A program made the translations under genes and the position numbers. The notes under the pieces are model-generated. The model saw nothing but the letters and a program-made list of their open reading frames with translations. It made no database searches and had not been told where the DNA came from. A stretch of DNA of 64,000 nucleotides from a phage: the sequence record PZ583741.1; one strand, given 5' to 3'. The stretch's first letter is position 1. Every line of letters begins with the position of its first letter. Positions 40,901-57,263 of this stretch are shown one piece after another.

Positions 40901-41368
40901 CAATACGGAATTAGTTTGGGTCTTAAATATAACGGCCAGACTTATTCATCTGGCATGAGCATGGAGCTTGTCGGCACTGGTGGAAATGTTCGTAGTCAAT
41001 TCATTTTTGATGCAAACAGATTCGCAATCAGTAATGGAATTGGTTCTGGTTCTGGTCAGTGGCAACTCCCCTTCGTTGTCGAGAACGGAAACGTAATCAT
41101 CCAAAGTGCAGTAATTGGTGATGGTTCAATCAGTAACGCGAAGATTGGTAACTTCATTCAGTCCAATAACTACGTAGCAGGAACCACAGGTTGGAGGATT
41201 GATAAGTCTGGAAGTGCAGAGCTAAGCAACGCCACTGTAAGAGGTAATCTTTACGCTAACAATGGTAACTTCGCATTCAACGGAACCAATAACACTGTTC
41301 AGATTAACAACAATGGAATTACGGTAAACTTACCGAACGGAGGTAGAGTTGTAGTTGGAGTGTGGTAA
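37943..41368 (+). CDS. central tail fibre / host specificity protein (J-like)
   Basis: 1141 aa, last gene of tail operon; true start may be a downstream Met. Confidence 0.75.
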   Translation: MAQMIKTNMRLCDMAEEIKIYGAKGGSQKQHQPVEQEDNLISLNKVKVLLAVADGEVDPNFSMKDLYLADVPVQNQDGSYNYDGVRAEFRAGTQYQDYIAGLDGANSEIQASREITNDTPYIIAVNNNQLSAIRVKLFWPRLVKQESNGDLVGTTCEYAIDLSVNGGSYQEYTRGVANGKTTTGYDRSIRVNLPAEFDSALVRIRKITADSTSSTLVNGMQITTYQEVIDAKFRYPLTALVYVEFGSDLFPNGIPTISIKKRWKLIQVPTNYDPETRTYSGTWNGLFKMAWSNNPAWVLYDLVTNRRYGLEQRELGVEIDKWGLYEAAQFCDQMVPNGKGGMEPRYLCDMVVQNKVEAYTLIRDICSIFRGLTFYDGEKIGIVVDKPRNPSYIFTNDNVVNGLFSRTFASDKSLYTTANVQFDDVENNYQQDVEPVFELEATRRFGFNPVDLTAIGCTRRSEANRRGRWLLKTNLRSETISFTTGLEGMIPMIGEVIAVNDAAWSSNYQLNLSGRIESVQGLQVFTPFKVDAAPGDRILLNKPDGSPEARTIASVSEDGRTINLNTAFSFVAQPDTVFAIDKDNLALQQYVVTGIQKADTDGSDSFQYTITAVEYDQNKYDEIDYGVNIVDRPTSIVEPDRLSPPENLTVSSYSKVVQGLSVETMVIGWDKAPYAKTYNVQWRKENGNWINVPRTASTEVDIEGIYAGIYDVRVRSVSDTENVSAWSDIVTVSLTGKIGRPSAPTVITASNDEVFGIRVKWGFPDGSGDTAYTELQQVADNGDGTYNPDNASLLTLLPYPAYEYWHTPIQPGKVIWYRARLIDRIGNTSDWSDFARGMSTDDANIINDYIKVDIEGSEGFKYLEQNAIQKNQDIQNQAESILENALANDTDVRRMTKENGKRKAEYVQAVNLIADETQARVEALTQLKAQIDDEVVASITEVQTALATETEARTTADTALSARLGDNEAAISQKLDAFSNATSTGVQYGISLGLKYNGQTYSSGMSMELVGTGGNVRSQFIFDANRFAISNGIGSGSGQWQLPFVVENGNVIIQSAVIGDGSISNAKIGNFIQSNNYVAGTTGWRIDKSGSAELSNATVRGNLYANNGNFAFNGTNNTVQINNNGITVNLPNGGRVVVGVW

Positions 41369-41374
41369 ATGATT

Positions 41375-41396
41375 AGGCCCCTGGTGGGGCCTTTTC
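41375..41396. terminator. hairpin aggcccc-tggt-ggggcct between convergent genes
   Basis: Read directly. Confidence 0.6.
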
Positions 41397-41398
41397 TT

Positions 41399-42370
41399 TT
41401 AGTAGAAGTTTGGAATGAATGGAAGTGCCATTGATATATTTGTGTCGAAAGGGAACTGAGCGCCTGATTGCGTCGAGTAGTTACCAATTACAGTACCTGG
41501 CACTGCTCTAACGTTACCACCAGACATGCAAATGCCCTTGTATCGCAAGTTGTTATACCCTCCAGTAACTCTAGTCGTAGCGCCACATCTAAGAAGCGGG
41601 AAGAATCCACCATTTATTGACTGATATACATTGCTTATTTGTATAAATCCACTAAGTACAAATGGTCGCCTAACGCTGGAGAAAACAATCTGACCAGAGC
41701 TATTTGACATTGTAAGACCAGGTCCAGCTACTGGAGGTTCATTCCTGAATATCACCAACTGAACGTAAGTGCTTGCCGCCACATCATCTATACCACCATA
41801 GTTTACATCACGGCACCATATCGTACTCCCATCACTCTCCAGAGACACGTTTGGATTATCCCACTTACCGAATGGTATTCCACTGACTGGCAGTGCTGAT
41901 GATCCGTTAACCTGAATACCACCAACCCATGCCGCTGACATTAGCCGTGAGTTGCTTGATATTGCCAAGAAGTCAGTTGAGTTTTCAACTAGTATTCCTG
42001 GGCTTGATGAAGATGAGGCTGGTAGAATTTCAAAACAATTACCCGCAAAGTCAATTATTCGACCATTGGCTCCGTTAAAGTTACTAAGTGTTATCCTGCC
42101 AGTGCCGTCATTTACCTTTTGGAATCCGTTCATGTAATAAACTTCTGGTATAACATCGTAAGCGTCAACGTGGACCGCCTTCGTTGGTAGGCAGAAAGCC
42201 GTAGAGCCAGGAGACATTGTCAATCTAAAATCCCACGAACTTGCTGGGGTTGAAAGTCCATTGGTATTTATTGATCCAGTCACAGCAGGTGCCCTTAACC
42301 CTGCCGTAATTTCCATCGCTGGCCTTCCGTCATTAAGGTCAATCAATATACCATGAGGCATTATTTCCAC
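41399..42370 (-). CDS. hypothetical Gly/Ser/Asn-rich protein (possible fibre-like or exclusion-associated)
   Basis: 323 aa; second gene of a minus-strand two-gene cassette. Confidence 0.4.
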
Positions 42371-42606
42371 TCCTTGCTGCCATGATCTGCAACAGAGCCG
42401 CCGTAACCGCCGCCGACCTTGCTTTCAATCCCAGCGTAACGAACATCAACCTCGCCAGCCGGAACAACTACGCCACCCTTCCATTTAGCTACGCATACGC
42501 CGTTAGCTTGAGTTGCACACCAGCCATCCGGTCGAGGACCTGAAGAACAACCTACCATCATGACTGCTGCTGCGGCGATGATTGAAAGTTTGATTAAGTT
42601 AGTCAT
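42361..42606 (-). CDS. small lipoprotein (possible superinfection-exclusion protein)
   Basis: [22 protein letters not shown] signal peptide with lipobox VGC; minus-strand cassette upstream. Confidence 0.5.
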
Positions 42607-42672
42607 TTCTAATTCCTTAGTAAGTTGTTTCGTTTCGATGTGGTAATAGTATCGCATCCATGAGATCAGTAT

Positions 42673-42690
42673 TTAGCAATTAGTGCTATT
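42673..42690 (-). promoter_or_regulatory. B cassette motif on minus strand (aatagcactaattgctaa)
   Basis: Reverse complement read directly; TACTAT box and catcgaaacgaaac leader follow. Confidence 0.5.
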
Positions 42691-43339
42691 TCTTTTCGAG
42701 TAACATCTTGATGTCAATGCCGAGATTATTTTCAATCAATCCAGTCAGTGCATCCGTCTTTTCTTTAAGGGCAAAACACTGAGCTTCATACTTAAATCTT
42801 TCCTCCATCTCGTCAGAGCGACTAACCCAGCACTGGCGAGCCTCGCAAGCCAGCATGTCGAGTTTTTCATCGGTATTCTTATCCATGAGTAAGATCTCAT
42901 TTATTCTTTGCTCTGCAACAATGCGCTGACTAAGGTGTGCATTTTGCGCATTAGCCACACCAAGCATCATGCGCGCTTCTTTTAACTCATCAATGCTTAC
43001 CATCTGACTGATTACTTCTGCTTGTTTTTTAACTAACGACTCAAGCTCATGAAGTCTTTTAACTACCGCGTATCGAAGTGCGGGGCTGTAACCCATAACC
43101 AATGTTTCAGTTAAATCGCGGTTAAGAAGAACTTCAGAAACAAAGCCGCGATAGTCTATAAGTGCTTGATAATCCTCATGACCCAAATTTGGGTTATGCC
43201 CCGACGCTAGGATGTCGATTATCATATCCTCACAGTCACGAATAACGTGACCATGTCTTTTCCCAGTTAATTCCGCAATTTCTTTCGTGCTCATCATGGT
43301 TTTCGGCTGTTCTTTGTACAATTTAATCTTCATTTTCAT
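42686..43339 (-). CDS. Rha-family-like phage regulatory protein (putative)
   Basis: N-terminal MSTKEIAELTGKRHGHVIRDCE resembles Rha regulators; start at M34 of track ORF. Confidence 0.45.
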   Translation of the reverse strand: MKMKIKLYKEQPKTMMSTKEIAELTGKRHGHVIRDCEDMIIDILASGHNPNLGHEDYQALIDYRGFVSEVLLNRDLTETLVMGYSPALRYAVVKRLHELESLVKKQAEVISQMVSIDELKEARMMLGVANAQNAHLSQRIVAEQRINEILLMDKNTDEKLDMLACEARQCWVSRSDEMEERFKYEAQCFALKEKTDALTGLIENNLGIDIKMLLEKK

Positions 43340-43431
43340 CTCTCTTTGGTTTTGTGATACGAAATTTTCGTAGCGCAAGCGGCACCATTTCCGCCATGCG
43401 CACAAATATACCCAAATATTGCGTCTTGTCT

Positions 43432-43449
43432 TTAGCAAGACGTGCTATT
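43432..43449 (-). promoter_or_regulatory. B cassette motif on minus strand (aatagcacgtcttgctaa)
   Basis: TATATT box downstream on minus strand. Confidence 0.45.
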
Positions 43450-43938
43450 TATCGCAAATTTACCCATAAATCATGGTTACGCGTAACCGATGTAACTCGA
43501 TGTATACCATAGCCACCCGCGAGAAATGATATACGCACTGTTACGCCAATTTACGCAATGGTTACATTAAAATATCTATATATATCAACCTTTTACTCTT
43601 ATTATTATTATTATATATATTACCGTGTATATCATGTAACTACTGTTCTGGAGTGTTCCGGTTATAATTTTTATATTATGTGGATTTATACAGTATTGCG
43701 CGGCACCTATACATATGCACCATCCGTTAAAATAGGTATACACGATATACGCACCATTTACATTGAGCTATAGCTGGGCTTAAGTGGTGAAAAACGTAAC
43801 AAATGGCGATGTCTACACGTAGTTACAAAATTATACGCGTAAACTTGAATCAACGATTGGCAAAACCAATTGGACTACGCGTCGTGCGTAAGGCATCATT
43901 AACTCATCGAAAGCAAACAACAATAGAGAGATAAAGAA
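43440..43938. promoter_or_regulatory. AT-rich divergent control region (copy 1) with (TA)n, (ATT)n and 20-bp element cattgagctatagctgggct
   Basis: About 500 bp without ORFs; element at 43761..43780 contains perfect palindrome agctatagct; paralogous to 61940..62662. Confidence 0.5.
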
Positions 43939-44133
43939 ATGCCATACTTCATCATTAAAGAGAAAAACAACGCACTGTTCGGGGATTGCTACTTTGGAGG
44001 TGAGGCTGGATATACAGTTCACAAATCTGAAGCCGACCGATTCGAGACAAAGGAAGAAGCCAAGTCTGTTCTGACCGGATATTTCACTGAGGAAGATTTG
44101 AAAGCTGTTAAGATTGTCAAAATTAAGGATTGA
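43939..44133 (+). CDS. hypothetical small protein
   Basis: 64 aa ORF. Confidence 0.35.
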   Translation: MPYFIIKEKNNALFGDCYFGGEAGYTVHKSEADRFETKEEAKSVLTGYFTEEDLKAVKIVKIKD

Positions 44134-44136
44134 ACC

Positions 44137-45108
44137 ATGACATTTACCGTATACACAAATGATGAGCTAACCAATGAAGCCTATCACGAAGAGCAAGACC
44201 ATATCTCTGGCTCTTCACTTGCTGAGATTCTTGCCACCTCTCCAGCTAAATGGAAGTTTAAGCAGCGCAATAACTCTAGCGCAGCACTTAAGTTTGGCAC
44301 ACTCAGTCACTGCATGATGCTCGAGCGTGAAGTGTTCGATTCAACCTACATGCGAGCAACTGACTTTGACGAAGTGGAAGGATTGATTACAAGCCAAACA
44401 GCCTTATCAGCAGCGCTTAAGAAAGTTGGAGTTTCTGGCACGTCAGGAAAGGGCTATAGCGAGCTCTTAGAGATGATGTACAAGTCTGGTGAGGATTGGC
44501 CTGTTAAATGGTTAATTGATCAGCAGGAGAGCGCTGAGGCGTTAATTAGTGGCAAGGAGCTAGTTACTGCTAAAGATTACGATAAGGTAATCTCAATGCG
44601 TGAGGTTCTGACTAATGTACCGGCATATGATGCGGTGATTAATTCACCTACAGCGCAGAAAGAGCTATCAATCTTTGGTGATATTCTTGGGTGTGGTGTT
44701 AAGGTTCGGCTTGATCACGTGGATGTTGTTGATGGCGTTGTCTATATCCATGACTATAAGACGACCGCAGACGCAAGCCCTCGAGGATTTGGTAAGTCGG
44801 CTTATGACCATGGTTACCTGTGCAAGATGAGCCTTCAGCGTGATTTGTTTGTGAAGGCATTTAGCGAGAAGCGCAAGGTTGTGGTTCGACTCCTGGCGCA
44901 GGAGAAAACTGAACCATACTTACCTATGTGCTACACGCTTACAGATGAGCAACTTCGCATTGGGCGCATTCAGTATCTTGAAGCACTGGCTACATACAAA
45001 CAGTGCAAGGAACTTGATGTGTGGCCTGGTTACAGTAATGGGATTACAGAGCAAGAACTGATGATCCCTGAGTGGGTAAGTAAGCAGTATCAGGAGCTGC
45101 TAAAATAG
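44137..45108 (+). CDS. PD-(D/E)XK family exonuclease
   Basis: 323 aa; N-terminal block matches A ORF 1799..2749; IHDYKT motif. Confidence 0.55.
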   Translation: MTFTVYTNDELTNEAYHEEQDHISGSSLAEILATSPAKWKFKQRNNSSAALKFGTLSHCMMLEREVFDSTYMRATDFDEVEGLITSQTALSAALKKVGVSGTSGKGYSELLEMMYKSGEDWPVKWLIDQQESAEALISGKELVTAKDYDKVISMREVLTNVPAYDAVINSPTAQKELSIFGDILGCGVKVRLDHVDVVDGVVYIHDYKTTADASPRGFGKSAYDHGYLCKMSLQRDLFVKAFSEKRKVVVRLLAQEKTEPYLPMCYTLTDEQLRIGRIQYLEALATYKQCKELDVWPGYSNGITEQELMIPEWVSKQYQELLK

Positions 45109-45122
45109 CACGAATTGCTAAA
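45105..45122 (+). promoter_or_regulatory. B cassette motif ATAGCACGAATTGCTAAA
   Basis: Then ggggtattatcacccc and catcgaaactaaaaac. Confidence 0.5.
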
Positions 45123-45185
45123 GACAAAATTAACTGGTGGGGTATTATCACCCCATCGAAACTAAAAACAGAAGTGAGAGATTAA

Positions 45186-45335
45186 ATGAAAGTATACATC
45201 GTAACCAGTCAAGAAATGTATGATTATGATACGAATGTTGAAGCCGTGTTTTTTGATGAAGAGCTTGCTAATGGATTTGTTTATAAATCAGAACTTGAAG
45301 GATTGCAGATTTTAGAGATGGAGGTAACCGAGTAA
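45186..45335 (+). CDS. hypothetical small protein (49 aa)
   Basis: After cassette; TAATG overlap with next gene. Confidence 0.3.
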   Translation: MKVYIVTSQEMYDYDTNVEAVFFDEELANGFVYKSELEGLQILEMEVTE

Positions 45336-45985
45336 TGAAAACTTCAGAACAAAACAAGCAAGTATTGAAGTCGTTATTTGAAGCTAAATCAAAGTTTGCA
45401 AAGGCTGAAAAGTCAAAGCAGAACTCACACCTGAAGAACAAATACGCAACTCTGGAAGACGTACTAGCGGCTGTAGAACCCGGCCTTGCAGATAGTGGTC
45501 TGGTTTTATTCCAGGGAATGCTTGATGATGAAGCCACGACTCGGATTAAAGTTGAGACAACTATCTATCATGCAGAGTCTGGAGAGTGGGTTAGCTTCCT
45601 GACAATCGTCCCAATCAGCAAGCAAGATGCCCAAGGTTATGGTTCTTCTCTGACTTATGCTCGACGTTACGCAATTACAGCAGCATTGGGGCTGAGCCAG
45701 ACGGATGATGATGGTCAGCTGGCAGTTAAAGGAATTAACTCATTTAAGAAGGACTTGGCTAAGTGCAATACCCTTGATGACCTGCGTGATGTTTACAAGG
45801 AAGCAAAACAGTCTCTTGACTCTGCTGGGTGGTTAGTGCTTGAGCCTCATATCATTGAGCGAAAAGCTGAGATTCAGGCTAATGCAACTAACGGATTCAA
45901 TCCAGCAAAACCTAAGCAGGTTGCACAAAAAACTGTTCAAGAAGAAAGAATTGAAGTACAATCTCAAGAAATCGATACGTTCTAA
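45335..45985 (+). CDS. putative single-strand annealing protein (Erf-like, family uncertain)
   Basis: 216 aa; DAQGYGSSLTYARRYAITAALGLSQTDDDGQ shared with A paralog. Confidence 0.5.
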   Translation: MKTSEQNKQVLKSLFEAKSKFAKAEKSKQNSHLKNKYATLEDVLAAVEPGLADSGLVLFQGMLDDEATTRIKVETTIYHAESGEWVSFLTIVPISKQDAQGYGSSLTYARRYAITAALGLSQTDDDGQLAVKGINSFKKDLAKCNTLDDLRDVYKEAKQSLDSAGWLVLEPHIIERKAEIQANATNGFNPAKPKQVAQKTVQEERIEVQSQEIDTF

Positions 45986-46025
45986 TTTAACGGGGCTTCG
46001 GCCCCAACATTAAGAGAGAAATGAA

Positions 46026-46454
46026 ATGAGTCATGTAATCACTGGTGTTATCCGTCGCGCTCCGTTTACCAAAGAAGGTCAGAATGCCAATGGCACCTGG
46101 AAGATGTACGCAGTTGATTTGAGTGAGCGATATAAGGATAAAGATGGTCAGGCACATTATTCGAATTACCGCGCAGTCTTCTTCGCGAAGGAGTCAATGC
46201 TAGATTGGTACAACGAGGCATTTCAAGAGGGTAAAGTTGTTAGCGTTAGCGCTGAAAGTTTATCTGTAGATGTTCGTGACAAAGATGGTAAAACATACGT
46301 AACCATTAACATGAATAACCCTCGACTAGAGTTTAGTCAGCGTGGCGATGCAGTTAGCAATCCACAACAACATCAACATCAGCCAAAACAGCAGCAGCAG
46401 CAGCAACGACAACCGCAGCAGCAACAGAACCTCGAGGACGACATTCCATTCTGA
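46026..46454 (+). CDS. ssb: single-stranded DNA-binding protein with Q-rich linker
   Basis: 142 aa; C-terminal LEDDIPF; (CAG/CAA)n tract 46370..46430. Confidence 0.7.
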   Translation: MSHVITGVIRRAPFTKEGQNANGTWKMYAVDLSERYKDKDGQAHYSNYRAVFFAKESMLDWYNEAFQEGKVVSVSAESLSVDVRDKDGKTYVTINMNNPRLEFSQRGDAVSNPQQHQHQPKQQQQQQRQPQQQQNLEDDIPF

Positions 46455-46463
46455 TAAAAGAAA

Positions 46464-46486
46464 AGGCCCCTTTCGGGGCCTTTTTT
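46464..46486. terminator. bidirectional terminator (A-run, aggcccc-tttc-ggggcct, T-run)
   Basis: Read directly; between convergent ssb and tailspike. Confidence 0.8.
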
Positions 46487-49034
46487 ACGAAGCTGTATTT
46501 ACCTGAAGATATGCACCATTAGTGGCACCAAACCATGCGTAAGCAGATCCGTAAGTTGTTGGGTTATCATTTAAGATGAAGTCACCCGCTCTAATTACAC
46601 ACTTTGCTCCATATCTATCAGTTGGCCTTGCACTAAAACCATAATCAACATATCTAAAACCAACCTTCGTTACGTTATCGTTAAGAGGAAAAATATCCGA
46701 GAAGCTAGAAGACCTAAAGTCATTGTTCCTGAAAACGCCTCCAGTAAAGTTATCCATGTCAAACATAGTGTTCAAGCTAGCTCCAACAGTATTCCTGAAC
46801 TTGTTACCTTCGTATGTTGGAGAGATTACTTCATAGCCAACCCTCAACTGAATAAATCCTCCATCAAGAATATTGTCCTTAATTGTTGGGTACTGACCGC
46901 CGATTGATAATGCCCCGAAGCCAGGTGTAAATTTGCAACTATTATTACTAAATATAGCACCAATCCATGACTGATTAGTAAGGTATGGTGCTTTCGTGTC
47001 GGTCATCGTGTTTCCGGTGATAATTAATCCATTCTTAATCTGTGTGCCCTCCTGGTAGCCCTGAATCGCCACGCCACCACCAATCATAATGTTGTTGGAT
47101 ATAATAATGTTGCTCAACCCCTCATTAACACCCCAATCACTTTCTGCATCATTTGTTATCAGTAAGTAGTGAGAAGAAGCCCTACCAGTAGCGTCCGTAG
47201 TTATAATGCTTGTATTGCCTTTGCATATAACATTGTTTGCCGCAAAAACCTCAACAAATATACCAGCACCTTCGTAGTAGTTATCCGTAACCGTTACGTT
47301 ATTGCCAGCCGGGGTTATCCTTGACTGGATAGATATTGGATAATAGAACTTGTTGGCGTGAGCATAAGACCTTTTGCTTTTTTCGGATATTGCATAATCC
47401 TCCGCGAAAGTGTGCCATGCCCTTCCTGACTGTTTTGTTGTGTTTCCGATAAACTCTGAGTAGTCACAGTTTCTTGTGAGTAAGCAGTAGTTAGTGTTGT
47501 ATCTGAAGTTTGAATCTCTAAGAGATACTAATGCATTAGATAAACCATTAAGAGCATCGGCATTAACAAAGGCCCTCGAGGCATTAACCTCCATACGCTC
47601 AATCAAAACTGATGCGCACCCTTCAACCATAAAGCCAAACCAGTCTTCTCTTGGTTTATGCGTTGTATCTAATGGTTGGATTGAGTAATCTGAAAAGTCA
47701 CTATTCCAGTTGAGGCCGCTAGCTTTAAGTGTGCAATTCTTTGCGCCGAAAACAACCCTCTCAGGTGATGAACTTCCAGATATATCGATCTCAACATCAT
47801 TATTGGCAAAAATATCAACATTAAGGCCATTAAGGAAGAATGCCGTCTTCCTTAATACGTTGTACTTATCATTGTACTGAATATCAGTGGAGAATGAGAC
47901 CTTCAGTCTTCCTGCGCTAATCCTTACCTTTCTGTTTGTGTTGTGACCAAGATTTATACACGCCATCACTGATGCGTTTGATTCATTAACTCCAGAAACA
48001 TCATGACCAGCCCATTCAGTATGGATATCATCGATCCCTCCTGTAAACCTAACCCAGCAACCATTCCCCCCTGGTGATGGCTCACCAACTCCTCCAAGGA
48101 AGTCTGAAAGCGTGGAATAAGTACCATCAAATGGAACCGTTGGGCTAAAAACAGTAATCCCGTTATGTTCGCCCTTACTTACTGATGGACTCCAGTAGAA
48201 CAGACCGCCACCAGAGTTTGATCCAGAAATGTAAGACCTTACATTTGCTAAAGTTTTATTCTCAGTTGGTTGTTGGATTAACTCGTAAATAGAATCAAAA
48301 CCAGCATCACCACTGGAAGCCAAAGGAATCCAACCTTGAGGGCCGATGCCACCAGTGTCTTCCGGGGTAGAGCCAGCTGGAACAACTTTAGGAAGTTCAC
48401 CGCCCCACAGGTAGGATGATGCGTAACCATTTGATATATTTATTACCTGCTGGCTTTTTGATTCTACTGTTACTCCATCCTGAAATGTGCCAATTAGAGC
48501 CCCAGAAACAGAAGCGGCACTTGCTGCAGCATGTTGTGCAGATACAGAAGCTGATGATGCGCTCAATTCTGATGATTGCTTGTCCTGGGACACCTGAGCG
48601 GCATCACTAGAAACTTGAGCGCCAATAGAAACAACCTCACCATGCTGTGTGTTTACCTGGGTTACCTTTGATTCAAAATCCGCAAAGTCAAAGTTGTTAA
48701 AAGCATCGACTGCATCGGCGACTTCTGTTTCTCGCGACTGATAGTATCGAAGAGTCTCGGCAACATCCTGAGCTAAACCCTGAACACTAATACCATCATG
48801 TGCAAGGATTGCATAACCAGTGCCATCGGGAACGGTTTCACCATTAGGGTTGTATACAGCCATTGATGTGTCGCTGGTGATTTCAGAGATAGTGTAAATC
48901 TGTACTGGCTCCGTTTTAAACACTAAAGTAGCACCAACGCGAATAAGTGTTAGTGGCATGGTCCATTGAGTGCCAACTCCAGTAACCTGACCGTTCGCTG
49001 CTAAACTGGCAGTGCCAGTATCATAAATTGCCAT
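46485..49034 (-). CDS. tailspike / receptor-binding protein with beta-helix-like repeats
   Basis: 849 aa from ATG (track start 49064 is a GTG); repetitive N/G/T-rich C-terminal region. Confidence 0.6.
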   Translation of the reverse strand: MAIYDTGTASLAANGQVTGVGTQWTMPLTLIRVGATLVFKTEPVQIYTISEITSDTSMAVYNPNGETVPDGTGYAILAHDGISVQGLAQDVAETLRYYQSRETEVADAVDAFNNFDFADFESKVTQVNTQHGEVVSIGAQVSSDAAQVSQDKQSSELSASSASVSAQHAAASAASVSGALIGTFQDGVTVESKSQQVINISNGYASSYLWGGELPKVVPAGSTPEDTGGIGPQGWIPLASSGDAGFDSIYELIQQPTENKTLANVRSYISGSNSGGGLFYWSPSVSKGEHNGITVFSPTVPFDGTYSTLSDFLGGVGEPSPGGNGCWVRFTGGIDDIHTEWAGHDVSGVNESNASVMACINLGHNTNRKVRISAGRLKVSFSTDIQYNDKYNVLRKTAFFLNGLNVDIFANNDVEIDISGSSSPERVVFGAKNCTLKASGLNWNSDFSDYSIQPLDTTHKPREDWFGFMVEGCASVLIERMEVNASRAFVNADALNGLSNALVSLRDSNFRYNTNYCLLTRNCDYSEFIGNTTKQSGRAWHTFAEDYAISEKSKRSYAHANKFYYPISIQSRITPAGNNVTVTDNYYEGAGIFVEVFAANNVICKGNTSIITTDATGRASSHYLLITNDAESDWGVNEGLSNIIISNNIMIGGGVAIQGYQEGTQIKNGLIITGNTMTDTKAPYLTNQSWIGAIFSNNSCKFTPGFGALSIGGQYPTIKDNILDGGFIQLRVGYEVISPTYEGNKFRNTVGASLNTMFDMDNFTGGVFRNNDFRSSSFSDIFPLNDNVTKVGFRYVDYGFSARPTDRYGAKCVIRAGDFILNDNPTTYGSAYAWFGATNGAYLQVNTAS

Positions 49035-49057
49035 TGTGTAAAGTCTCCATTTGTAAA

Positions 49058-49075
49058 GTAGCACTAATTGCTAAG
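49058..49075. promoter_or_regulatory. cassette-like palindrome gtagcactaattgctaag upstream of tailspike
   Basis: Matches consensus on the plus strand but lies 5' of a minus-strand gene; orientation ambiguous. Confidence 0.35.
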
Positions 49076-49106
49076 TTGGATTGTATCATCTTTCAGGCAT
49101 AAAAAA

Positions 49107-49123
49107 ACCTCCCGAAGGAGGTT
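49107..49123 (-). terminator. terminator for minus strand (aacctcc-ttcg-ggaggtt plus T-run)
   Basis: Plus strand shows aaaaaa + aacctcccgaaggaggtt. Confidence 0.65.
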
Positions 49124-50045
49124 AGTCTAGTAATTCGCTTGCTTTGTATATTCGCTTTCTTATGCCTGACTTGAAAAAATTATCATCATTTGGCATTACC
49201 ACATCAAGATTGCGATCGTCAGCAACAGCGAGTAAATCAAAATCGTGGCGAGTACAAGCGACGCGTAACTTGTAGTTTCTAAGCGCATAAGCAACCATTT
49301 CCATGTTGTAACTGGAGTAGCAAACAAGCACGCAGCGGTTGCCAGTAGCAAGATGAACGCGAATACCATCAATCCAATTATCGACCATATAAGCGTACTC
49401 ATCATTCTTAAAGGTACCAATAACAGCAATAGACTGGCGAGTATAATCTTTTGCAGCATAACTAACATCTCCCTCTTCATTGATAAACATTACATTGCAC
49501 ATCTCATCGGACAACCCATCACTATATGCCATAAAACACGGTATTGCGTGTATTAGTTCGCCTGACTTCGTCCTGCCAACATCAAAACCAAACTCGCTGT
49601 AAATACCCTCGTATATACTGAGAGGAGTTGATTCTACTCTTTCCGTCCTTTCCATTATCTCTAAGCATCTTTCGTGGTCAATCTGCGCGCCCATTTTGTA
49701 TGGTGATGTTCTTGAAGCTCTTTTGTTTGCTTTTGATATAACATCTACTGGAACTAGATTCAGCCAATCACCAAGCGTATCTATTGTTTCGCTATAACTC
49801 ATTCCCGAGCATTTCATAACCCAGCCAACACCAGAATCGTTGCCGCACTGGTTACATATTGCTGCGCCATTTCCCTTTTCCTGACCTAACTCATCAGTGA
49901 AGCGAAACCTATCCTTGCCAAAGCAGTGGGGGCACGGACCATGCTTCTTGCTGAGATTCTCCTTTGTCCATCCAAGGTGCGATGAGTAGAATTCGCCCCA
50001 CATTCCACTCATTTTTGCTATCACTTCATTTTTATCATGGTGCAT
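49122..50045 (-). CDS. DNA primase (zinc-ribbon plus TOPRIM-like)
   Basis: 307 aa; CPHCFG...CNQCG; homolog of A 5708..6658. Confidence 0.65.
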   Translation of the reverse strand: MHHDKNEVIAKMSGMWGEFYSSHLGWTKENLSKKHGPCPHCFGKDRFRFTDELGQEKGNGAAICNQCGNDSGVGWVMKCSGMSYSETIDTLGDWLNLVPVDVISKANKRASRTSPYKMGAQIDHERCLEIMERTERVESTPLSIYEGIYSEFGFDVGRTKSGELIHAIPCFMAYSDGLSDEMCNVMFINEEGDVSYAAKDYTRQSIAVIGTFKNDEYAYMVDNWIDGIRVHLATGNRCVLVCYSSYNMEMVAYALRNYKLRVACTRHDFDLLAVADDRNLDVVMPNDDNFFKSGIRKRIYKASELLD

Positions 50046-50104
50046 ATCAATCTATCTCTTAGTAAATAAAAAAAGGATGTACCGATTATGGCACATCCAA
50101 TTAT

Positions 50105-50578
50105 TTACTCTTTAGCTTTTCGTGCTGCTTCGTTGGCTGCCTTAATTTTGCGCCATGAGCGACACTCTGGTTTAGTTGCTAGCTCAGCCTCAGTAACAAC
50201 ACGCAGCATATGACGCTTCTTGCAACGTAGAGTTAGCGGTTTCCCGTTACCGTCGAATTGCAGATCTGGTCGGCAGAATGTAGCGCGAAAACCTTCTCCA
50301 TTTCGCTTATAGTAGTTGTGCGACAACTGAGCGCCGCGCGCAGAAATCATCCCACGCTTAAACCATTCTTCTACAGCCTGAGGTGTCACCTTTAACTGCT
50401 TTGCGATATTTGCCTTTGTGCCGAAGAAATCAAGAACAATCTCCAGTCGCGCACGTAAACCCGCCCTTACCTCATCTTTCAAAACGTAGTAACCTGAAGG
50501 TCGTTTACGTTGCTTCTTATCTTGTGTGCGGACGGTCCCGTTATTGCCGTTAATTGTTCGCTTGTCAACTGCATTCAT
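50105..50578 (-). CDS. putative HTH DNA-binding protein
   Basis: Basic protein with HTH-like segment NIAKQLKVTPQAVEEWFKRG; start at M13 (gagg RBS). Confidence 0.3.
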   Translation of the reverse strand: MNAVDKRTINGNNGTVRTQDKKQRKRPSGYYVLKDEVRAGLRARLEIVLDFFGTKANIAKQLKVTPQAVEEWFKRGMISARGAQLSHNYYKRNGEGFRATFCRPDLQFDGNGKPLTLRCKKRHMLRVVTEAELATKPECRSWRKIKAANEAARKAKE

Positions 50579-50679
50579 TTCATTACCTCGATAGCATTTT
50601 TTGTTAAAAGTCATTCTGATTTGATGGTATTATTGTACTCAATTAAACGCTACAAGACAATTTTTATAGGAATTTAGAT

Positions 50680-52674
50680 ATGTTGCCTATCGAAAAGCTG
50701 GTTGCAAACTTCGATAAAGAAAGAATCAAGCAGATTCAGAAAGACTATCAGTTTGGTGAGATAACCCCTTACGAGTTTCAGTGCGTGACATTTGATGCAA
50801 TCGGAAAGGCTATTGGGAAGTACGAAGCACCATTTATCGCAGACCTTTCCGTATCGGCTGGTAAGACAATCATCCTGGCTATGATTGGAAAGCGTATGGA
50901 TCAGCTTGGTCTTCCTTATATGGTTCTATCTCGACAGTCAGAGATAATCAGCCAGAACTCAGAAGAGCTTCGTAATTTCGGCATCCGTAACAGCGTCTAT
51001 TGCGCTGGCCTTAACGTTAAATCGGTTTACTATCCAACCATAGTTGCCAGCGAGGGTACGGCTGCTAACGGATTGTTTAAGGGGCTTGGTGACTATGTTC
51101 CGGCAGTTATCGCTATCGATGAATGCCACATGCTTGATGCTATGGATATCGTTGAAGCCGAGGAGAACGAGGAAACTTTTGAGCAAATGAGCACAAAGAA
51201 GGGCGAGATGGTTCTCAAGGATGGCGTTAACACTGGATTAATTGGTACAGGTCGCGCGCAGTACACGCTAATCATCACTGAGATGAAGCGTCGTTGTCGC
51301 GAAAAGTATGGGCGGGAGCTTCGTATATTCGGTCTTACTGGCAGCCCATATCGCAACAACGACCACATAGTCGTTAGTAATCCTAATATCCGTGGTTTCT
51401 GGCGCAAAACAGTTATTCAGGTACCGACCAATTACCTGGTTGATTTGGGGTTCGTTGTACCAACAGTTTACGGTGAAGTTGGTGATTTGGGCTATGACCT
51501 TGCTGAGTTTACGCCAGATGGCTCTGACGGGATTAAAGACTTCACGAAGAAAGACTTAAACGCAATGGAGGAGAAGATTCACCAAAACCAATCTATGACA
51601 CAAAAGATTATGCAATTTGCAGCCAAGTTCATGGAGACAAGGAACGCGGCACTTGTTACCTGTTCTGGTAAGCGTCATTGCGAGGAAGCAGCAGCAGCGC
51701 TTCCTGAGGGTGTGACCTGGGCTATAGTAACTGACTCTACTGGTGAGAAAAAGCGTCGTGAGATTCTTTCTGACGCAGCTGAAGGTAAGTATAAATTCAT
51801 CTTTCAGATTGGTTGCCTCACAACCGGCGTGAACGTCCCGCCATGGGACACGTCAATAATTCTTCGCAAGGTTGGTAGCATCACGTTATTGATTCAGCTT
51901 TTGGGTCGAGGCATGCGAATTCTTAAGAAGAAGCATAAGGAAATGGGAATGGTTAAGGATGATCACGTGGTGCTGGACTTCGCTGGTACTCTTGATGACA
52001 TGGCAGAATTGTACTTTGACCCAATCATAGAGGAAGTGCAGGACCAGAAATTTAAGTCTTCACGCAAAGGCGGCGATGAGCCAAGAGTGTGCCCCGCATG
52101 CTCTTATGAGAATTCTCCTTTTGCCCGTCGTTGCAATAACGTAATTGATGGAAAGCGTTGTGAGCATTTTTTTACATTTCGCTTGTGTGAAGATATAGAG
52201 GACCCGCAGACAAAATCTATTATTAAGAAAGGTTGTGGTGAGAAGAATGATATTGCCGCTAAAAACTGTAGGTGCTGTGGCGAGATGCTAATAGACCCGA
52301 ACGCAAAGTTATCTGGGAAAATGTATCGTAAAGGCGACTGGTTGAGAGTCTACGACTTTAAGATTGGATTAACAAAGAATCAATCAGGGATTGTTGCCTC
52401 ATACGAGGTCATGGCTCATAGTGGGGATAGGTTCCGGGCCTATGAGACGTTTTTTCCAGAGTCAGACCATCGCGTTTGCTCTGTAAAATGGAAAGCATTT
52501 TGCTCGAGTCACATAGAGAACAGGACTGAGGCTTTTAGAATTGGCAGATTGCGTAATGCTAAGATGATTATGACTAATGCTCACCTTTTCCGTGCGCCAT
52601 TAAGGATTACACACCGTAAGAACCAGAAGTCTCAAGATATTATCGCAAACAAATCATTTACTATGGAAGACTGA
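50680..52674 (+). CDS. SF2 DNA helicase with C-terminal zinc ribbons
   Basis: 664 aa; Walker A SAGKT, DExH-like IDECH, LLGRGMR, CPACS/CRCCG; homolog of A 3190..5124. Confidence 0.8.
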   Translation: MLPIEKLVANFDKERIKQIQKDYQFGEITPYEFQCVTFDAIGKAIGKYEAPFIADLSVSAGKTIILAMIGKRMDQLGLPYMVLSRQSEIISQNSEELRNFGIRNSVYCAGLNVKSVYYPTIVASEGTAANGLFKGLGDYVPAVIAIDECHMLDAMDIVEAEENEETFEQMSTKKGEMVLKDGVNTGLIGTGRAQYTLIITEMKRRCREKYGRELRIFGLTGSPYRNNDHIVVSNPNIRGFWRKTVIQVPTNYLVDLGFVVPTVYGEVGDLGYDLAEFTPDGSDGIKDFTKKDLNAMEEKIHQNQSMTQKIMQFAAKFMETRNAALVTCSGKRHCEEAAAALPEGVTWAIVTDSTGEKKRREILSDAAEGKYKFIFQIGCLTTGVNVPPWDTSIILRKVGSITLLIQLLGRGMRILKKKHKEMGMVKDDHVVLDFAGTLDDMAELYFDPIIEEVQDQKFKSSRKGGDEPRVCPACSYENSPFARRCNNVIDGKRCEHFFTFRLCEDIEDPQTKSIIKKGCGEKNDIAAKNCRCCGEMLIDPNAKLSGKMYRKGDWLRVYDFKIGLTKNQSGIVASYEVMAHSGDRFRAYETFFPESDHRVCSVKWKAFCSSHIENRTEAFRIGRLRNAKMIMTNAHLFRAPLRITHRKNQKSQDIIANKSFTMED

Positions 52675-52675
52675 C

Positions 52676-53095
52676 ATGCAAATTACAGACAAAGAAGATT
52701 ACATTGAGTTTTACCCAGGCCCGGTTAAGTCATGCCCGAAAGAGGATGACGAACAAATCTTTTGCTCTGATTGGGTTAAGTATAACTACCAGGAGATGGT
52801 ATTTTTCCACTGCGTAAATGAGGGGAAGAAAACCATTGGACAGGCAAGAAAGGACCAGGCTAAAGGGCTCCTTAAAGGCGTGTCAGACTGCATGTTTCTT
52901 ATTCCAGAGTCTCTGCGAGGCAAATACCCTTTCGGAGCTATAGAGCTGAAGAGGGCTGGCAAAACTCAGGCTAGCCCAGTCAGTGACGAGCAGAAGTCTT
53001 TCCTTAAAAGCGTGAGAGAATCAGGGGGTTTCGCTGGGGTTGCCTACGGTAGAGATGGTTTTCTGGCAGCGTTTAGAGAAATGATTTCAAAATAG
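52676..53095 (+). CDS. VRR-NUC domain nuclease
   Basis: 139 aa; D...IELKR core; homolog of A 2775..3215. Confidence 0.55.
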   Translation: MQITDKEDYIEFYPGPVKSCPKEDDEQIFCSDWVKYNYQEMVFFHCVNEGKKTIGQARKDQAKGLLKGVSDCMFLIPESLRGKYPFGAIELKRAGKTQASPVSDEQKSFLKSVRESGGFAGVAYGRDGFLAAFREMISK

Positions 53096-53109
53096 CACTA
53101 ATTGCTAAA
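53092..53109 (+). promoter_or_regulatory. B cassette motif (atagcactaattgctaaa)
   Basis: 22 nt then TATAGT, then catcgaaacgaaacgc. Confidence 0.55.
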
Positions 53110-53173
53110 CACTTATCGCATGGATGCGATATAGTTACTCCATCGAAACGAAACGCACGAAGAGAGAAAGAAA

Positions 53174-53374
53174 ATGGCTACTATCTTTACTGGTAAATTC
53201 TACGAATCACGCAAGACTGGTTACATTTACGAACTGCAAGTAACTGAAGATGGTTATGTTCTGGTTGATATCGAAGACTGTACATACGCATTCGAAGTTA
53301 GTCCAACCTACAAAGATGATTTAGAAACTGTTAAAAACGCATTTGGCGAAAAATTTGATGAGGTGTCAGAATGA
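53174..53374 (+). CDS. hypothetical small protein
   Basis: 66 aa after cassette. Confidence 0.35.
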   Translation: MATIFTGKFYESRKTGYIYELQVTEDGYVLVDIEDCTYAFEVSPTYKDDLETVKNAFGEKFDEVSE

Positions 53375-53529
53375 GAGAGGCAATCGTAAACTGGAAAACT
53401 GGAGAGGATTCAAAATTCCTCTTCAATACATTCACGCAATACATTGACAAGTTTGTTTTCGTAATTGATGGTGGATGTGAGGTTGTTGTGCCTATTAAGC
53501 TAATTGATGGATTTGGGGTTACGGAGTAA
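53371..53529 (+). CDS. hypothetical small protein (52 aa)
   Basis: ATGA overlap with previous gene. Confidence 0.25.
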   Translation: MREAIVNWKTGEDSKFLFNTFTQYIDKFVFVIDGGCEVVVPIKLIDGFGVTE

Positions 53530-53750
53530 TGAAAAAATTAACTTTTGATAAGCAATGGGAGCTATTTCAGGCAATGGCAGCTCAGGAGTTGACTAAGGCT
53601 GGATATAAACATGATGCTTGGGGTTTGGCGTGGTGCCTTGATTATAGTTTTGAAGAAGACTACCTGAACACTGATATTGAAACATGGCGCGACCGCATGG
53701 TTGCTGATATCGAAGAAATGAAGAAAGATTGCCAGGAGGATTTCTTATGA
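53529..53750 (+). CDS. hypothetical small protein
   Basis: 73 aa ORF. Confidence 0.35.
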   Translation: MKKLTFDKQWELFQAMAAQELTKAGYKHDAWGLAWCLDYSFEEDYLNTDIETWRDRMVADIEEMKKDCQEDFL

Positions 53751-53947
53751 TTAACAATATACCGTTCGTTGTTACGTTTAAGCCAAGAAACAACACCCCA
53801 CGGATGGATATTGATGAGTACCTTCTGAAACGAGGAAATAGCTATTTTGTTCTTGAAATTTCCGCAGACTCAGATAGGTATATAGTCAAAAACGATGCGG
53901 GTATTGTTGTCTCAGTTTCAAAATTAGATGTGGAGATTGTTAGATGA
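53747..53947 (+). CDS. hypothetical small protein
   Basis: ATG 53747 overlapping previous stop. Confidence 0.3.
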   Translation: MINNIPFVVTFKPRNNTPRMDIDEYLLKRGNSYFVLEISADSDRYIVKNDAGIVVSVSKLDVEIVR

Positions 53948-54065
53948 AAATCGTAGACAAAGAGATGTTTGAAATTGCGCAGGTTTACGCGATTGATGCC
54001 GTCAAGAATAAATCAGAATGGTCATGGATGTGTGCTAAAGAATACCTAAAAATGGCTTGCGGATT

Positions 54066-54314
54066 ATGATAGTTGAAACAGGACGCGCCGCTGTTTGGGC
54101 GCATTGTGGAGAGGCTGGGCTGCAAGATGACATTAAGCAGATATCCAGATTCTTTGACATAAAAGATATCAGCGTTGTGTTCAATGGTAAATTCTCTTAC
54201 ATGGATGAGCGACCAAGAAAATACGTAAGAGTTAAGCCAGGTGTCAGGATTGATGTTAACGAGTTCCTTAAATCTGAGGGATTCAAGTTTAAGATAACGA
54301 AGCCTAAGGATTAA
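54066..54314 (+). CDS. hypothetical small protein
   Basis: ATG 54066 (track 54057 is a TTG). Confidence 0.3.
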   Translation: MIVETGRAAVWAHCGEAGLQDDIKQISRFFDIKDISVVFNGKFSYMDERPRKYVRVKPGVRIDVNEFLKSEGFKFKITKPKD

Positions 54315-54316
54315 GT

Positions 54317-54568
54317 ATGTTGGGTTTAGATTTTCAGCCAGGGCATTACGATTTAGTGCATGGGCAAAGTGGAACCAAGTTTAGAGCGATACCTATTGCT
54401 GATTGGTTCCCTCCTGATTATATGGATGTGAACGCAAAAACTAAAGAAGGTAAGTGGGTGCAGGTTTACTACTCCCCAGCTTGCGGAAACCTTTGCATGA
54501 CTGACCTTGATCAGAAATTAGCAATTAGTGCGGAAGTTATCGACTACTGGTTGAAAGAAGTTGAATGA
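54317..54568 (+). CDS. hypothetical small protein
   Basis: 83 aa ORF. Confidence 0.35.
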   Translation: MLGLDFQPGHYDLVHGQSGTKFRAIPIADWFPPDYMDVNAKTKEGKWVQVYYSPACGNLCMTDLDQKLAISAEVIDYWLKEVE

Positions 54569-54651
54569 CTAGCCTAATACTAGTAGGATCGTCACCACTG
54601 TTTAGCTTTACTATCTTATACTTTATCTCAATGAATTAAGGAACTTATATA

Positions 54652-55782
54652 ATGGCAACTGCAAAAATCACCAACGAGCAACTGCGCGAAGAGCTGGAAA
54701 ATGGCATGACCAACAAGGCAATCGCAGAGAAGTATGGAATGAACATTCGCAACGTTGAATTGCGTCGCAGTAAGCTGGCAAAATCAGGCGAGCTTCATGG
54801 AAACCCTGGTATCAAGAAGTTAGTCCCTGACGGTTATATGGTCAAAGGAACCTCAACAATGATTGACGCGGCGGGTAATGAAAAGCTTCGCTGGGTTAAA
54901 ACCTCTGTAGATAATGAGCGCCTTGAGGTTTTAATGGAGCAAGCTAGAGAGGCATTTTGTTCTGAGTTGCCAAAAGCAGATGCGGTCAGCCACTCAGGCA
55001 ACGAAGTTAACTCTGAATTAATGACTCTTTACCCTATTTTCGATATCCATATCGGCATGATGGCGCATCGCCATGAATCTGGTGAGAATTATGACACTAA
55101 CACGGCAGAGAAATTAATGGAATCATATTTCGACCATGCAATTTCTGTATCACCTGCGTCAGAGAAAGCCGTTGTTTTAGTTGGCGGCGACTTCCTTCAC
55201 TCTGACGGACTGGAGGCAGTAACTCCAGCAAGTGGTCACTGCCTTGATCAAGATAGTCGATATGCTAAGTTAGTTTATGTTGCAATTCGCTCAATTCGTG
55301 GTGCCATAGAGAAGATGCTTAAGAAGCATAAGAATGTCGAGATTCAGATTATAGAGGGAAATCATGACCAAAGCGGCATGATCTGGCTTCGCGCTGCAAT
55401 GGCTGCATTTTATGAAAACGAGAATCGCGTGTTTGTTGATACCAGTCCAGCAATCATGCACAAGACGCGATTTGGCTCAACGTTACTTGGTTACACACAC
55501 GGTCACACGATGAAGAAAGCCGAGGGTCGACTTGCGGCAATGGCGACTGACTACCGTAAAGACTTTGGTGAATGTGAATTTGTTTACTGCCACTCAGGAC
55601 ATTTCCATCATGCAACTGTTACAGAGTGCACACTTGGTATTGACGAGGTTCACCCAGCACTGGCCAGTAAGGACGCATATGCCGCACGTGGAGGTTGGCG
55701 CTCATACCGTCAAGCGGCTGCGATAGTTTACCACAAGAATTTTGGCGAGGTTGGTCGCCATATTTACCGCCCAGGCATGTAA
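54652..55782 (+). CDS. calcineurin-like metallophosphoesterase with N-terminal HTH-like domain
   Basis: 376 aa; DIHIG, GGDFLHSD, EGNHD motifs; N-terminal MTNKAIAEKYGMNIRNV. Confidence 0.5.
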   Translation: MATAKITNEQLREELENGMTNKAIAEKYGMNIRNVELRRSKLAKSGELHGNPGIKKLVPDGYMVKGTSTMIDAAGNEKLRWVKTSVDNERLEVLMEQAREAFCSELPKADAVSHSGNEVNSELMTLYPIFDIHIGMMAHRHESGENYDTNTAEKLMESYFDHAISVSPASEKAVVLVGGDFLHSDGLEAVTPASGHCLDQDSRYAKLVYVAIRSIRGAIEKMLKKHKNVEIQIIEGNHDQSGMIWLRAAMAAFYENENRVFVDTSPAIMHKTRFGSTLLGYTHGHTMKKAEGRLAAMATDYRKDFGECEFVYCHSGHFHHATVTECTLGIDEVHPALASKDAYAARGGWRSYRQAAAIVYHKNFGEVGRHIYRPGM

Positions 55783-55800
55783 ATAGCACATTTTGTTAAT
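55783..55800 (+). promoter_or_regulatory. degenerate B cassette motif (atagcacattttgttaat)
   Basis: Read directly; weaker match. Confidence 0.3.
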
Positions 55801-55856
55801 AAAGCCTCAAAGGATTGAGGCAAAATGAATAAACGATAACGAGATTAGGAGTTATA

Positions 55857-56330
55857 ATGATTTACGTATTTGATATTGACGGAACTATAGCTAATAATGA
55901 GCATAGAAATCACCTTTTACCATCCAGTGACCTTCACTTGACTTCAAGTTGGAAGTATTACAATAAAGCCTGTTCTGGAGACTCACCAATAATTCCAATG
56001 ATAAACATGATGAATGCGTTAGCGGAGTTATCGCAAGTTTGCATCATGACCTCCAGAAGCGATGAAGTTGAATGGAGAACACTTGAGTGGCTTCAGGATA
56101 ATGAGGTTGAGTATGATTCGATATACATGAGAAATCGACATGACAACCGAAAAGATTACAAAATAAAAGAGGAATGGCTTAATAAAATCAGTGGTGGCGA
56201 CAAAAGCAATGTGGTTATTTTTGAAGATAACCCACAAGTAATTAAGCACCTAAGAAGTTGCGGATACACCGTTATGGCTGTATGTGAATATGAAGACCTA
56301 CCTAAAGACTGCGAATCTCACGGAGAATGA
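55857..56330 (+). CDS. HAD-superfamily phosphatase-like protein
   Basis: 157 aa; N-terminal FDIDGT motif. Confidence 0.45.
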   Translation: MIYVFDIDGTIANNEHRNHLLPSSDLHLTSSWKYYNKACSGDSPIIPMINMMNALAELSQVCIMTSRSDEVEWRTLEWLQDNEVEYDSIYMRNRHDNRKDYKIKEEWLNKISGGDKSNVVIFEDNPQVIKHLRSCGYTVMAVCEYEDLPKDCESHGE

Positions 56331-56887: not shown

Positions 56888-56889
56888 AG
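56872..56889 (+). promoter_or_regulatory. B cassette motif ATAGCACGAATTGCTAAA
   Basis: Then catcgaaacgagatg leader. Confidence 0.5.
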
Positions 56890-56955
56890 ATAATAATAAA
56901 AACTTAGTTATCATTAACACATCGAAACGAGATGAAACAAAAGAGGAAGAACAAA

Positions 56956-57132
56956 ATGACTAAAATGATTTATTGCACCAAAAACAACTCCAAGACGCTG
57001 CCATTTACAGTTAACCAGCCGTACAATGCAGAGTATCAAGGTGACGGATACTACAAGATTTATGGCGACGATATGACGTGGATTTTAGCGCCGATTGATG
57101 GTTCGCTGGTTGAATTTATTATCGCAGACTAG
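56956..57132 (+). CDS. hypothetical small protein
   Basis: ATG 56956 after aagaggaag. Confidence 0.35.
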   Translation: MTKMIYCTKNNSKTLPFTVNQPYNAEYQGDGYYKIYGDDMTWILAPIDGSLVEFIIAD

Positions 57133-57156
57133 CGCATCTAAAACATAGCTTTACAA

Positions 57157-57186
57157 GTGGGGGGCCTTTTGGCTCCCCTTTTTTAT
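57157..57186 (+). terminator. rho-independent terminator (ggggggcc-tttt-ggctcccc plus T-run)
   Basis: Read directly. Confidence 0.6.
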
Positions 57187-57263
57187 GCTTCTTTTCCGAG
57201 CGGTGCTAATGTATCATTCTTTTACTAACTTAAACATTGACAAATACACAAATGGAGGATCAC

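Follow-up and report, generated by a model that had tools for sequence, protein, structure and literature searches.

The locus of the lateral tail fibre in T1-like siphoviruses (family Drexlerviridae), its mosaicism and its terminators are already covered by the papers on the BASEL collection and on phages vB_EcoD_SU57 (SU57) and TLS. According to the first, the flanks of the gene (recombination, primase/helicase) are conserved and syntenic, and conservation within the fibre gene is confined to its far 5′ end (PMC8594841, S1C Fig). The second describes a bottom-strand tail spike gene past the recombination block, with a common 5′ end, a unique middle and a rare 3′ part: a mosaic gene, preceded by a terminator and with a presumed site of recombination (PMC7718038). 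In TLS, the product of the same locus, Gp55, was assigned to a 78-kDa virion protein band (PMC11447400). The present analysis concerns the corresponding gene in a phage DNA of 64,000 nucleotides (sequence record PZ583741.1, hereafter the window), an open reading frame (ORF) of 849 codons plus a TAA stop on the minus strand (46485..49034) in the T1-like part of the window. With a probability of about 0.85, its product is the lateral (side) tailspike of a Braunvirinae-like member of the T1-like Drexlerviridae siphoviruses, and the gene sits at the family's fibre locus and is modular, its distal part having been exchanged. This is a real but ordinary feature, an already described family trait. 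We met no description of two of its features, a conserved candidate extended −10 promoter and, at the 5′ end of the gene, a consistently inverted copy of a genome-wide repeat.

How does this locus compare with those of its relatives? Those examined were G8, ACG-M12, 12210I, RobRod40, AHP42 (Rogunavirinae), JohannLBurckhardt (Tempevirinae), a Klebsiella phage, Cronobacter phage CS01, phiEB49 and T1; a primase-based locus search gave eight close relatives, and the wider comparison drew on GenBank loci. In every one of them, from T1 to the Klebsiella and Cronobacter phages, the order is regulator, primase, terminator, fibre, two-way terminator, ssb, erf and exo, with collinear flanks and with the fibre gene on the primase strand. 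None lacks a fibre gene at the locus, and the encoded proteins range from 622 to 1314 amino acids. A sequence-only reading of the window, made without database searches, had rightly seen an 849-amino-acid minus-strand ORF between ssb and primase, far from a tail operon at 30538..41368. That operon was found; it begins with the major tail protein, includes the tape measure and ends with a J-like tip protein, and the fibre gene lies about 5 kilobases downstream. The idea that the gene is unusually embedded in the replication module did not survive the comparison: the locus is the family norm for the Drexlerviridae lateral fibre, not an unusual insertion. Likewise, “antisense” holds only with respect to the recombination and structural genes, as the gene is co-directional with primase and regulator.

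The T1-like part of the window is about 90% identical to SU57, CEB_EC3a, ACG-M12 and others (over 82–90% of a 24-kilobase query), SU57 being the closest genome overall (about 90% identity across 90% of the 24 kilobases); those of these relatives that carry a taxonomy line are assigned to Drexlerviridae, subfamily Braunvirinae. The sequence-only reading had suggested searching related phages for alternative inserts at this place. Only small ones turned up, the fibre gene being always there: an HNH endonuclease gene between ssb and fibre in ACG-M12 (4652..4993 of locus L002) and phiEB49 (5328..5681 of L018), an HNH gene between regulator and primase in RobRod40 (4514..4993 of L004), an HNH gene also listed in the fibre-locus region of CEB_EC3a, and, in T1 and the Klebsiella phage, tiny ORFs preceding the fibre gene. 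The fibre locus of the window has no HNH homing-endonuclease gene, and G8 carries a DNA methyltransferase gene between exo and erf (2797..3261 of L001).

The fibre protein (PHROG 24092, “tail fiber protein”) is built of three modules. The longest ORF, 46485..49064, would give 859 amino acids from a GTG, while the ATG at 49034 gives 849. The latter is the real start, as judged from an M1-to-M1 alignment with the depolymerase Depo32, from the annotated starts of relatives, and from a Shine-Dalgarno sequence, GGAG (49045..49048, minus strand), which was read from the sequence 10 nucleotides 5′ of the ATG and is kept in relatives. Module A (amino acids 1–100; 48735..49034) is a family-wide N-terminal virion anchor, 53–98% identical in 10 of the 10 Drexlerviridae fibres compared. 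The first 180 amino acids match 901 phage records, nearly all through residues 1–103, a region that the N-termini of lambdoid side tail fibres also match at about 40% identity. Module B (amino acids 101–245; 48300..48734) consists of a helical, probably coiled-coil, linker followed by a Tail_spike_N domain (amino acids 182–238). It is common to RobRod40 (65%) and AHP42 (50%), and absent from G8 and ACG-M12. Module C (amino acids 246–849; 46488..48299), a predicted right-handed parallel beta-helix with a C-terminal beta-sandwich, has the opposite distribution, being common to G8, ACG-M12 and phiEB49 (72–92%), to a Kagunavirus-like phage (40%) and to a podovirus (33%), with no counterpart in the fibres of RobRod40, AHP42 or T1.

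The C-terminal 599 amino acids match only 34 phage records, other phage families included, and are 89–93% identical to the fibres of CEB_EC3a, G8 and ACG-M12. The Kagunavirus-like phage carries its homologous tailspike gene in the tail operon, after J, and the podovirus after the lysis genes. A wider protein search added P22-like prophage tailspikes, in which the module C domain (39–65% identical) stands behind the head-binding domain PF09008, as well as 849-amino-acid proteins 90–97% identical to that of the window. The exact architecture is therefore already in public assemblies, and the window protein is at most a new allele combination.

The DNA comparison locates the exchange. Similarity to 17 loci ends inside the gene, at 48736 (codon ~100), 48688 (codon ~116) or 48589–48601 (codons ~146–149), and it resumes exactly at 46485/46486, the fibre stop codon. 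The flanks are matched by 11–13 of the 17 loci and module A by 10–13, against 4 of 17 for the gene body; in 48300..48599, which is most of module B, the depth is 0–1, rising toward module A. With breakpoints inside the gene and at its stop codon, the exchanged unit is the distal part of the gene, not a cassette bounded by terminators. The first 300–450 nucleotides, the promoter region and both terminators lie within the conserved flanks, and these can act as homology arms. Homologous recombination between the conserved 5′ 300–450 nucleotides and the terminator/ssb flank would replace the distal part and so shift the host range.

The sequence-only reading had seen here a self-contained module, swapped horizontally and delimited by terminators and a palindrome. 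What stands is the exchange of the C-terminal specificity part (34 matching records against 901 for the N-terminal region); what does not is the boundary, since the breakpoints are internal. It had also named the same gene at the same locus with collinear flanks in all relatives as an observation that would speak against it: the flanks are collinear throughout, and the distal part of the gene differs. Its stronger form, a mobile cassette that comprises the entire gene, both terminators and the 5′ palindrome and is inserted or swapped as a unit, is largely refuted and must be considered very improbable. Two real terminators do bound the gene, its body does differ between relatives and a palindrome does lie at its 5′ end. 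However, terminators, promoter region and gene start belong to the collinear flanks, every relative examined has a fibre gene at the locus, the palindrome occurs in some 20 copies across the genome, mostly before other genes, and many genes of this genome are flanked by terminators. There is no recombinase and no target-site duplication at the locus, and conservation is lacking for a 14-nucleotide inverted repeat that encloses the primase terminator. Base composition was dropped as a sign of foreign origin, the difference between the beta-helix part (39–43% guanine plus cytosine, GC) and the flanks (43–47%) being too small.

What would the exchanged part do? An AlphaFold model of the monomer, built from 42 sequences (mean predicted local distance difference test score, pLDDT, 78; predicted template modelling score, pTM, 0.70), consists of a small beta domain (amino acids 1–77), helices (87–175), the Tail_spike_N domain, a long and confident beta-helix and a C-terminal beta-sandwich. 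The pLDDT of the helices is low, as is to be expected of a coiled coil in a single-chain model. The best Foldseek matches are TSP3, TSP4 and TSP2 of phage CBA120, Depo32, and the tailspikes of HK620 and Det7, and the predicted fold is the pectin-lyase-like right-handed beta-helix of tailspikes and depolymerases, in agreement with the beta-helix-like tailspike of the sequence-only reading. The domain search that the latter had proposed returned Tail_spike_N (PF18668) at amino acids 182–238, ahead of the helix (Pfam, E = 4.5e-14; score 52.7 bits, cut-off 25). In a PDB sequence search, the N-terminus of Depo32 (7VYV, 7LZJ) matched amino acids 1–167 (E = 1.6e-34); only the anchor and Tail_spike_N segments found matches there, and the beta-helix gave none. 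NCBIfam had no match for the fibre protein.

Module C is probably not only the receptor-binding but also the glycan-cleaving part of the protein. A domain that binds its glycan with no enzymatic activity would agree with the failure to identify catalytic residues and with an identity of at most 16% to any characterised enzyme. We nevertheless regard this as improbable: many acidic positions are nearly invariant among homologues 30–97% identical (D345, D389, D413, E425, D456, E463, E471, D493, E545 and E595), and the fold neighbours are overwhelmingly enzymes. In addition, close relatives such as SU57 give haloed plaques (PMC7718038), although the distal module of SU57 differs, as judged from its absence among the 34 records that match module C.

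The glycan in question is most likely the O-antigen and, tentatively, O6. Among other carriers of module C are phages whose isolation hosts were ATCC 25922 and CFT073, and a phage with the name 536P11, which presumably refers to strain 536; we take all three strains to be of serogroup O6. Could the beta-helix instead target a capsule (K antigen) or another exopolysaccharide, as the capsule depolymerases of Klebsiella Drexlerviridae do? This is unlikely, if more plausible than a domain that merely binds. The carrier hosts share O6 and differ in K type (K2 for CFT073 and K15 for 536), and the best Foldseek matches are CBA120 TSP2–4, which we take to be O-antigen-specific. ACG-M12, whose module C is 89% identical to that of the window, lyses four of four O6:H1 isolates as well as CFT073 (PMC3347319), sensitivity to it tracks O6:H1, and the BASEL authors propose the O-antigen as the primary receptor of the family (PMC8594841). 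The preferred reading, a lateral tailspike directed at the O-antigen, can be put into steps. The protein would trimerise through its helical segment, module A would attach it to the tail tip, and module C would bind, and probably cleave, the surface glycan. The phage could thereby get through the O-antigen layer to the outer-membrane receptor, which the central J-type fibre would read.

The terminators on either side of the gene had been correctly noted from the sequence. The first is a two-way intrinsic terminator (46461..46484, both strands) with 10 pairs, 6 of them GC, located 1 nucleotide past the fibre stop and serving both ssb and the fibre gene, which converge on it; with GGCCCC/GGGGCC as the stem, a T-run follows on each strand. 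A hairpin with another stem sequence is found at this position in eight relatives, and a terminator pair is annotated there in T1 and AHP42. The second, on the minus strand (49106..49123), ends the regulator-primase unit, with 7 pairs followed by seven T residues, and overlaps the primase stop codon. Its position is kept while the stem undergoes compensatory changes (AACCTCC/GGAGGTT, CCCTC/GAGGG, CCCCGC/GCGGGG, ACCCGCC/GGCGGGT and ACCGCC/GGCGGT), and its equivalent in TLS is T56 (PMC11447400). As both positions are kept in distant relatives while the stems change sequence, both hairpins are argued to be functional. Terminator-like matches are not enriched in the surrounding 10-kilobase stretch (9 against 7.8 ± 3.4 expected). 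The structural operon has at least nine intergenic sites with a hairpin and a T-run (28 matches against 17.7 ± 4.3 expected). Flanking by terminators is the norm in this genome, and the TLS paper recalls the late region of T1 as a series of terminator-bounded “transcriptons” (PMC11447400).

The primase terminator is enclosed by a 14-nucleotide inverted repeat (49093..49106 / 49156..49169, 93% complementary). It was considered as a possible antiterminator, processing stem or cassette boundary and rejected, as ACG-M12, RobRod40, 12210I and others vary the downstream arm with no compensation in the coding arm. Judging by this pattern, it is probably not functional, and the comparable pairings seen in Bas11 and in the Klebsiella phage may have arisen by chance.

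Between the primase terminator and the fibre ribosome-binding site lies a candidate extended −10 promoter, TGATACAAT (49080..49088, minus strand). All 16 distinct upstream regions compared have a TGnTAnnnT motif between the T-run and the ribosome-binding site. Among them are those of T1, Bas11, the Klebsiella phage, CS01, AHP42 and phiEB49, in which the spacer sequences cannot otherwise be aligned; a coincidence of this kind in six lineages has a probability of about 2e-7. It is plausible that TGATACAAT is the fibre gene's own promoter, and the gene would probably form a short transcription unit running from this element (49088..49080), just past the primase terminator, to the two-way terminator. 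Such a unit fits the general “transcripton” layout of T1-like genomes, and the conservation of the element offers an answer to the SU57 authors, who wondered whether a gene behind a terminator is transcribed at all (PMC7718038). Their doubt, a strong terminator 72 nucleotides upstream of the ATG and the lack of any canonical −35/−10 promoter call upstream of the fibre gene would all suit a silent or decaying gene. This is scarcely credible given an intact ORF of 849 codons, an anchor conserved family-wide, an extended −10 and ribosome-binding site kept in all 16 upstream regions, and homologues at the same locus that are a virion protein (TLS Gp55) or an active depolymerase (Depo32).

The palindrome at the 5′ end of the gene exists (49059..49073), and the sequence-only reading had called it cassette-like; it turned out to be neither specific to this gene nor a boundary, as it belongs to a genome-wide repeat. 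The window has 24 matches to TAGCA-N5-TGCTA, where 2.4 would be expected, all of them in the T1-like part; this pattern is the core of the 21-nucleotide repeat aaATAGCACnnnTTGnTAAAA. This repeat has been described for TLS, T1, Rtp and Rogue1, its function being listed as an open question (PMC11447400). As a text string, repeats of the aaATAGCACnnnTTGnTAAAA type gave no literature match, and the repeat was traced through that same TLS paper. Twenty copies with at most one mismatch are spread over 17951..62059 (e.g., at 17951, 18671, 19109, 24122, 36099, 42673 on the minus strand, 45105, 53092 and 60845 on the minus strand). In 17 of them a TAnnnT hexamer, usually TATAGT, follows at an offset of 20–22 nucleotides, and 2 others have a weaker −10-like sequence. 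In most, a CACATCGAAACGA-like stretch comes after the hexamer, and in many the start codon lies about 56 nucleotides past the repeat. The repeat thus appears as part of a longer unit of fixed length (repeat, 20–22 nucleotides, TATAGT-like hexamer, CACATCGAAACGA-like stretch, start codon), a layout which puts the repeat centre about 42 nucleotides upstream of the −10-like box. In several copies the −10-like box is also flanked by the arms of an inverted repeat (e.g., GGGGTA...TACCCC at 19284 and 45105).

The fibre copy, GTAGCACTAATTGCTAA (49058..49074, plus strand), has one mismatch to the repeat's 17-nucleotide core and is the sole exception among the 20. It is inverted with respect to the fibre gene, points away from it, and has no gene downstream on its own strand. 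No TAnnnT was found at an offset of 20–23 nucleotides from it. It lies 6–7 nucleotides past the extended −10, that is, at about +1 to +15 of the putative transcript. The same inverted copy, equally devoid of a −10, stands beside the fibre start in ACG-M12, RobRod40, Bas11, the Klebsiella phage, T1 and phiEB49. It is missing from that position in AHP42 and CS01, and none is listed there for TLS (PMC11447400). The fibre copy therefore departs from the published description, in which the repeat points along transcription (PMC11447400): it is on the opposite strand and has no −10-like box at +21. The arrangement taken as typical of the T1-family repeat, about 76 nucleotides before a start codon and with a −10-like box some 21 nucleotides downstream, is not that of the fibre copy. 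A plus-strand promoter giving a primase-antisense RNA from the inverted repeat was considered and found unsupported: neither the fibre copy nor its counterparts in six relatives have a TAnnnT at the canonical offset, and no gene follows.

Is the inverted copy, then, a dedicated control element that gives the fibre gene an expression programme unlike that of the roughly 19 units with the repeat about 42 nucleotides upstream of a −10-like box? The idea is speculative and we hold it to be doubtful. If it were so, a factor acting upstream at the other repeat promoters might become a roadblock or repressor at the fibre gene; alternatively, the copy might serve as a promoter-proximal pause site of the sigma70 type (the inverted repeat reads TGCTAyTTT), or might insulate the gene against antisense read-through. 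If true, such a role would give a testable handle on the function of the repeat, the question left open by the TLS authors. The same geometry is seen in the divergent region between regulator and helicase. The repeat copy that serves the helicase (50591..50607) falls within the opening codons of the regulator gene; it is inverted and stands downstream of that gene's sigma70-like promoter, TTGTCT-17-TACAAT (50632..50660). If the regulator binds the repeat, it might regulate its own gene.

As to the neighbours, the ssb-like gene (46026..46454, plus strand; PHROG 44, E = 3e-27) is convergent with the fibre gene and is the same neighbour in all relatives examined. Two recombination genes, Erf (45335..45985, plus strand) and ExoVIII-like (44137..45108, plus strand), lie near the fibre locus. 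The DNA primase gene (49122..50045, minus strand; Pfam Zn_Ribbon_Prim), on the fibre's strand, is annotated as primase in all relatives examined. Adjoining it on the same strand is the regulator gene (50105..50614, minus strand), and a search of its product, of 169 amino acids, against the PDB was uninformative. Right after the J-like tip gene, 41399..42657 (minus strand) encodes a DUF6453 membrane protein of 323 amino acids and a small gene product; the relatives' equivalent of this small gene is annotated as a Cor superinfection-exclusion lipoprotein, and the gene has its own repeat-type promoter unit at 42673.

The window itself is composite: 1..17651 matches Jersey-like Salmonella/E. coli siphophages (e.g., Segz_1, ~91%), and the remainder is T1-like. 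The T1-like genome is single and occupies 17652..63873 (46,222 base pairs); the last 127 bases of the window (63874..64000) are the same as those starting at 17652, and this suggests a wrap-around, a terminal repeat or a second copy. The ORF 16480..17709 crosses the junction and is probably an artefact. Some host labels among the matching records also look doubtful: “Pseudomonas phage PsgS01F” (PP134917.1) is a genome of 44,679 base pairs like that of Escherichia phage UALMA_PCEc3, with nearly equal match statistics, and about 20 “Campylobacter phage” records carry a Drexlerviridae fibre anchor.

Several points weigh against the reading of this gene as a transcribed, glycan-cleaving lateral tailspike. 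The proposed promoter is defined by its match to a consensus and lacks a good −35, the authors of the SU57 paper doubted that the gene behind the terminator is transcribed (PMC7718038), and the inverted repeat copy falls within the first ~15 nucleotides of the putative transcript. The structural model is that of a monomer, the trimer being assumed, and its structural neighbours include both hydrolases and lyases. Finally, ACG-M12 also lyses O14, O18ac, O25:H1, O135 and rough strains (PMC3347319); as its host range is broader than O6, O6 specificity is only suggested.

The BASEL and SU57 descriptions mean that the earlier observation, and the sound part of its interpretation, were already in print. 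The locus sets the host range of T1-like phages through their primary glycan receptor. The practical value of this is small, yet the module boundaries (codon ~100, codon ~245 and the stop codon) are useful junctions for tailspike swaps in Drexlerviridae therapy candidates. The fibre gene of T1, ST26, has the same position and orientation, and its N-terminal ~100 amino acids are 53% identical to those of the window, while the distal 750 amino acids are unrelated. The Braunvirinae fibres of CEB_EC3a, G8 and ACG-M12 are at the same locus, with module C 89–93% and module A 82–95% identical; they are about 90 amino acids longer (936–943 amino acids), with an unrelated middle that has no Pfam Tail_spike_N match. 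Depo32/DpK2, which depolymerises the K2 capsule and comes from a Klebsiella Drexlerviridae phage (PDB 7VYV, 7VZ3, 7LZJ), has a homologous anchor and helical stalk and the same architecture of anchor, stalk, beta-helix and C-terminal domain, but its beta-helix is only ~12–14% identical and its substrate is different. The CBA120 TSP1–4, HK620, Det7 and P22-type tailspikes, for their part, share with the window protein the succession of Tail_spike_N (PF18668) and right-handed beta-helix; CBA120, HK620, Det7 and P22-type tailspikes differ from it in their virion attachment modules and in the morphotypes of the phages that carry them.

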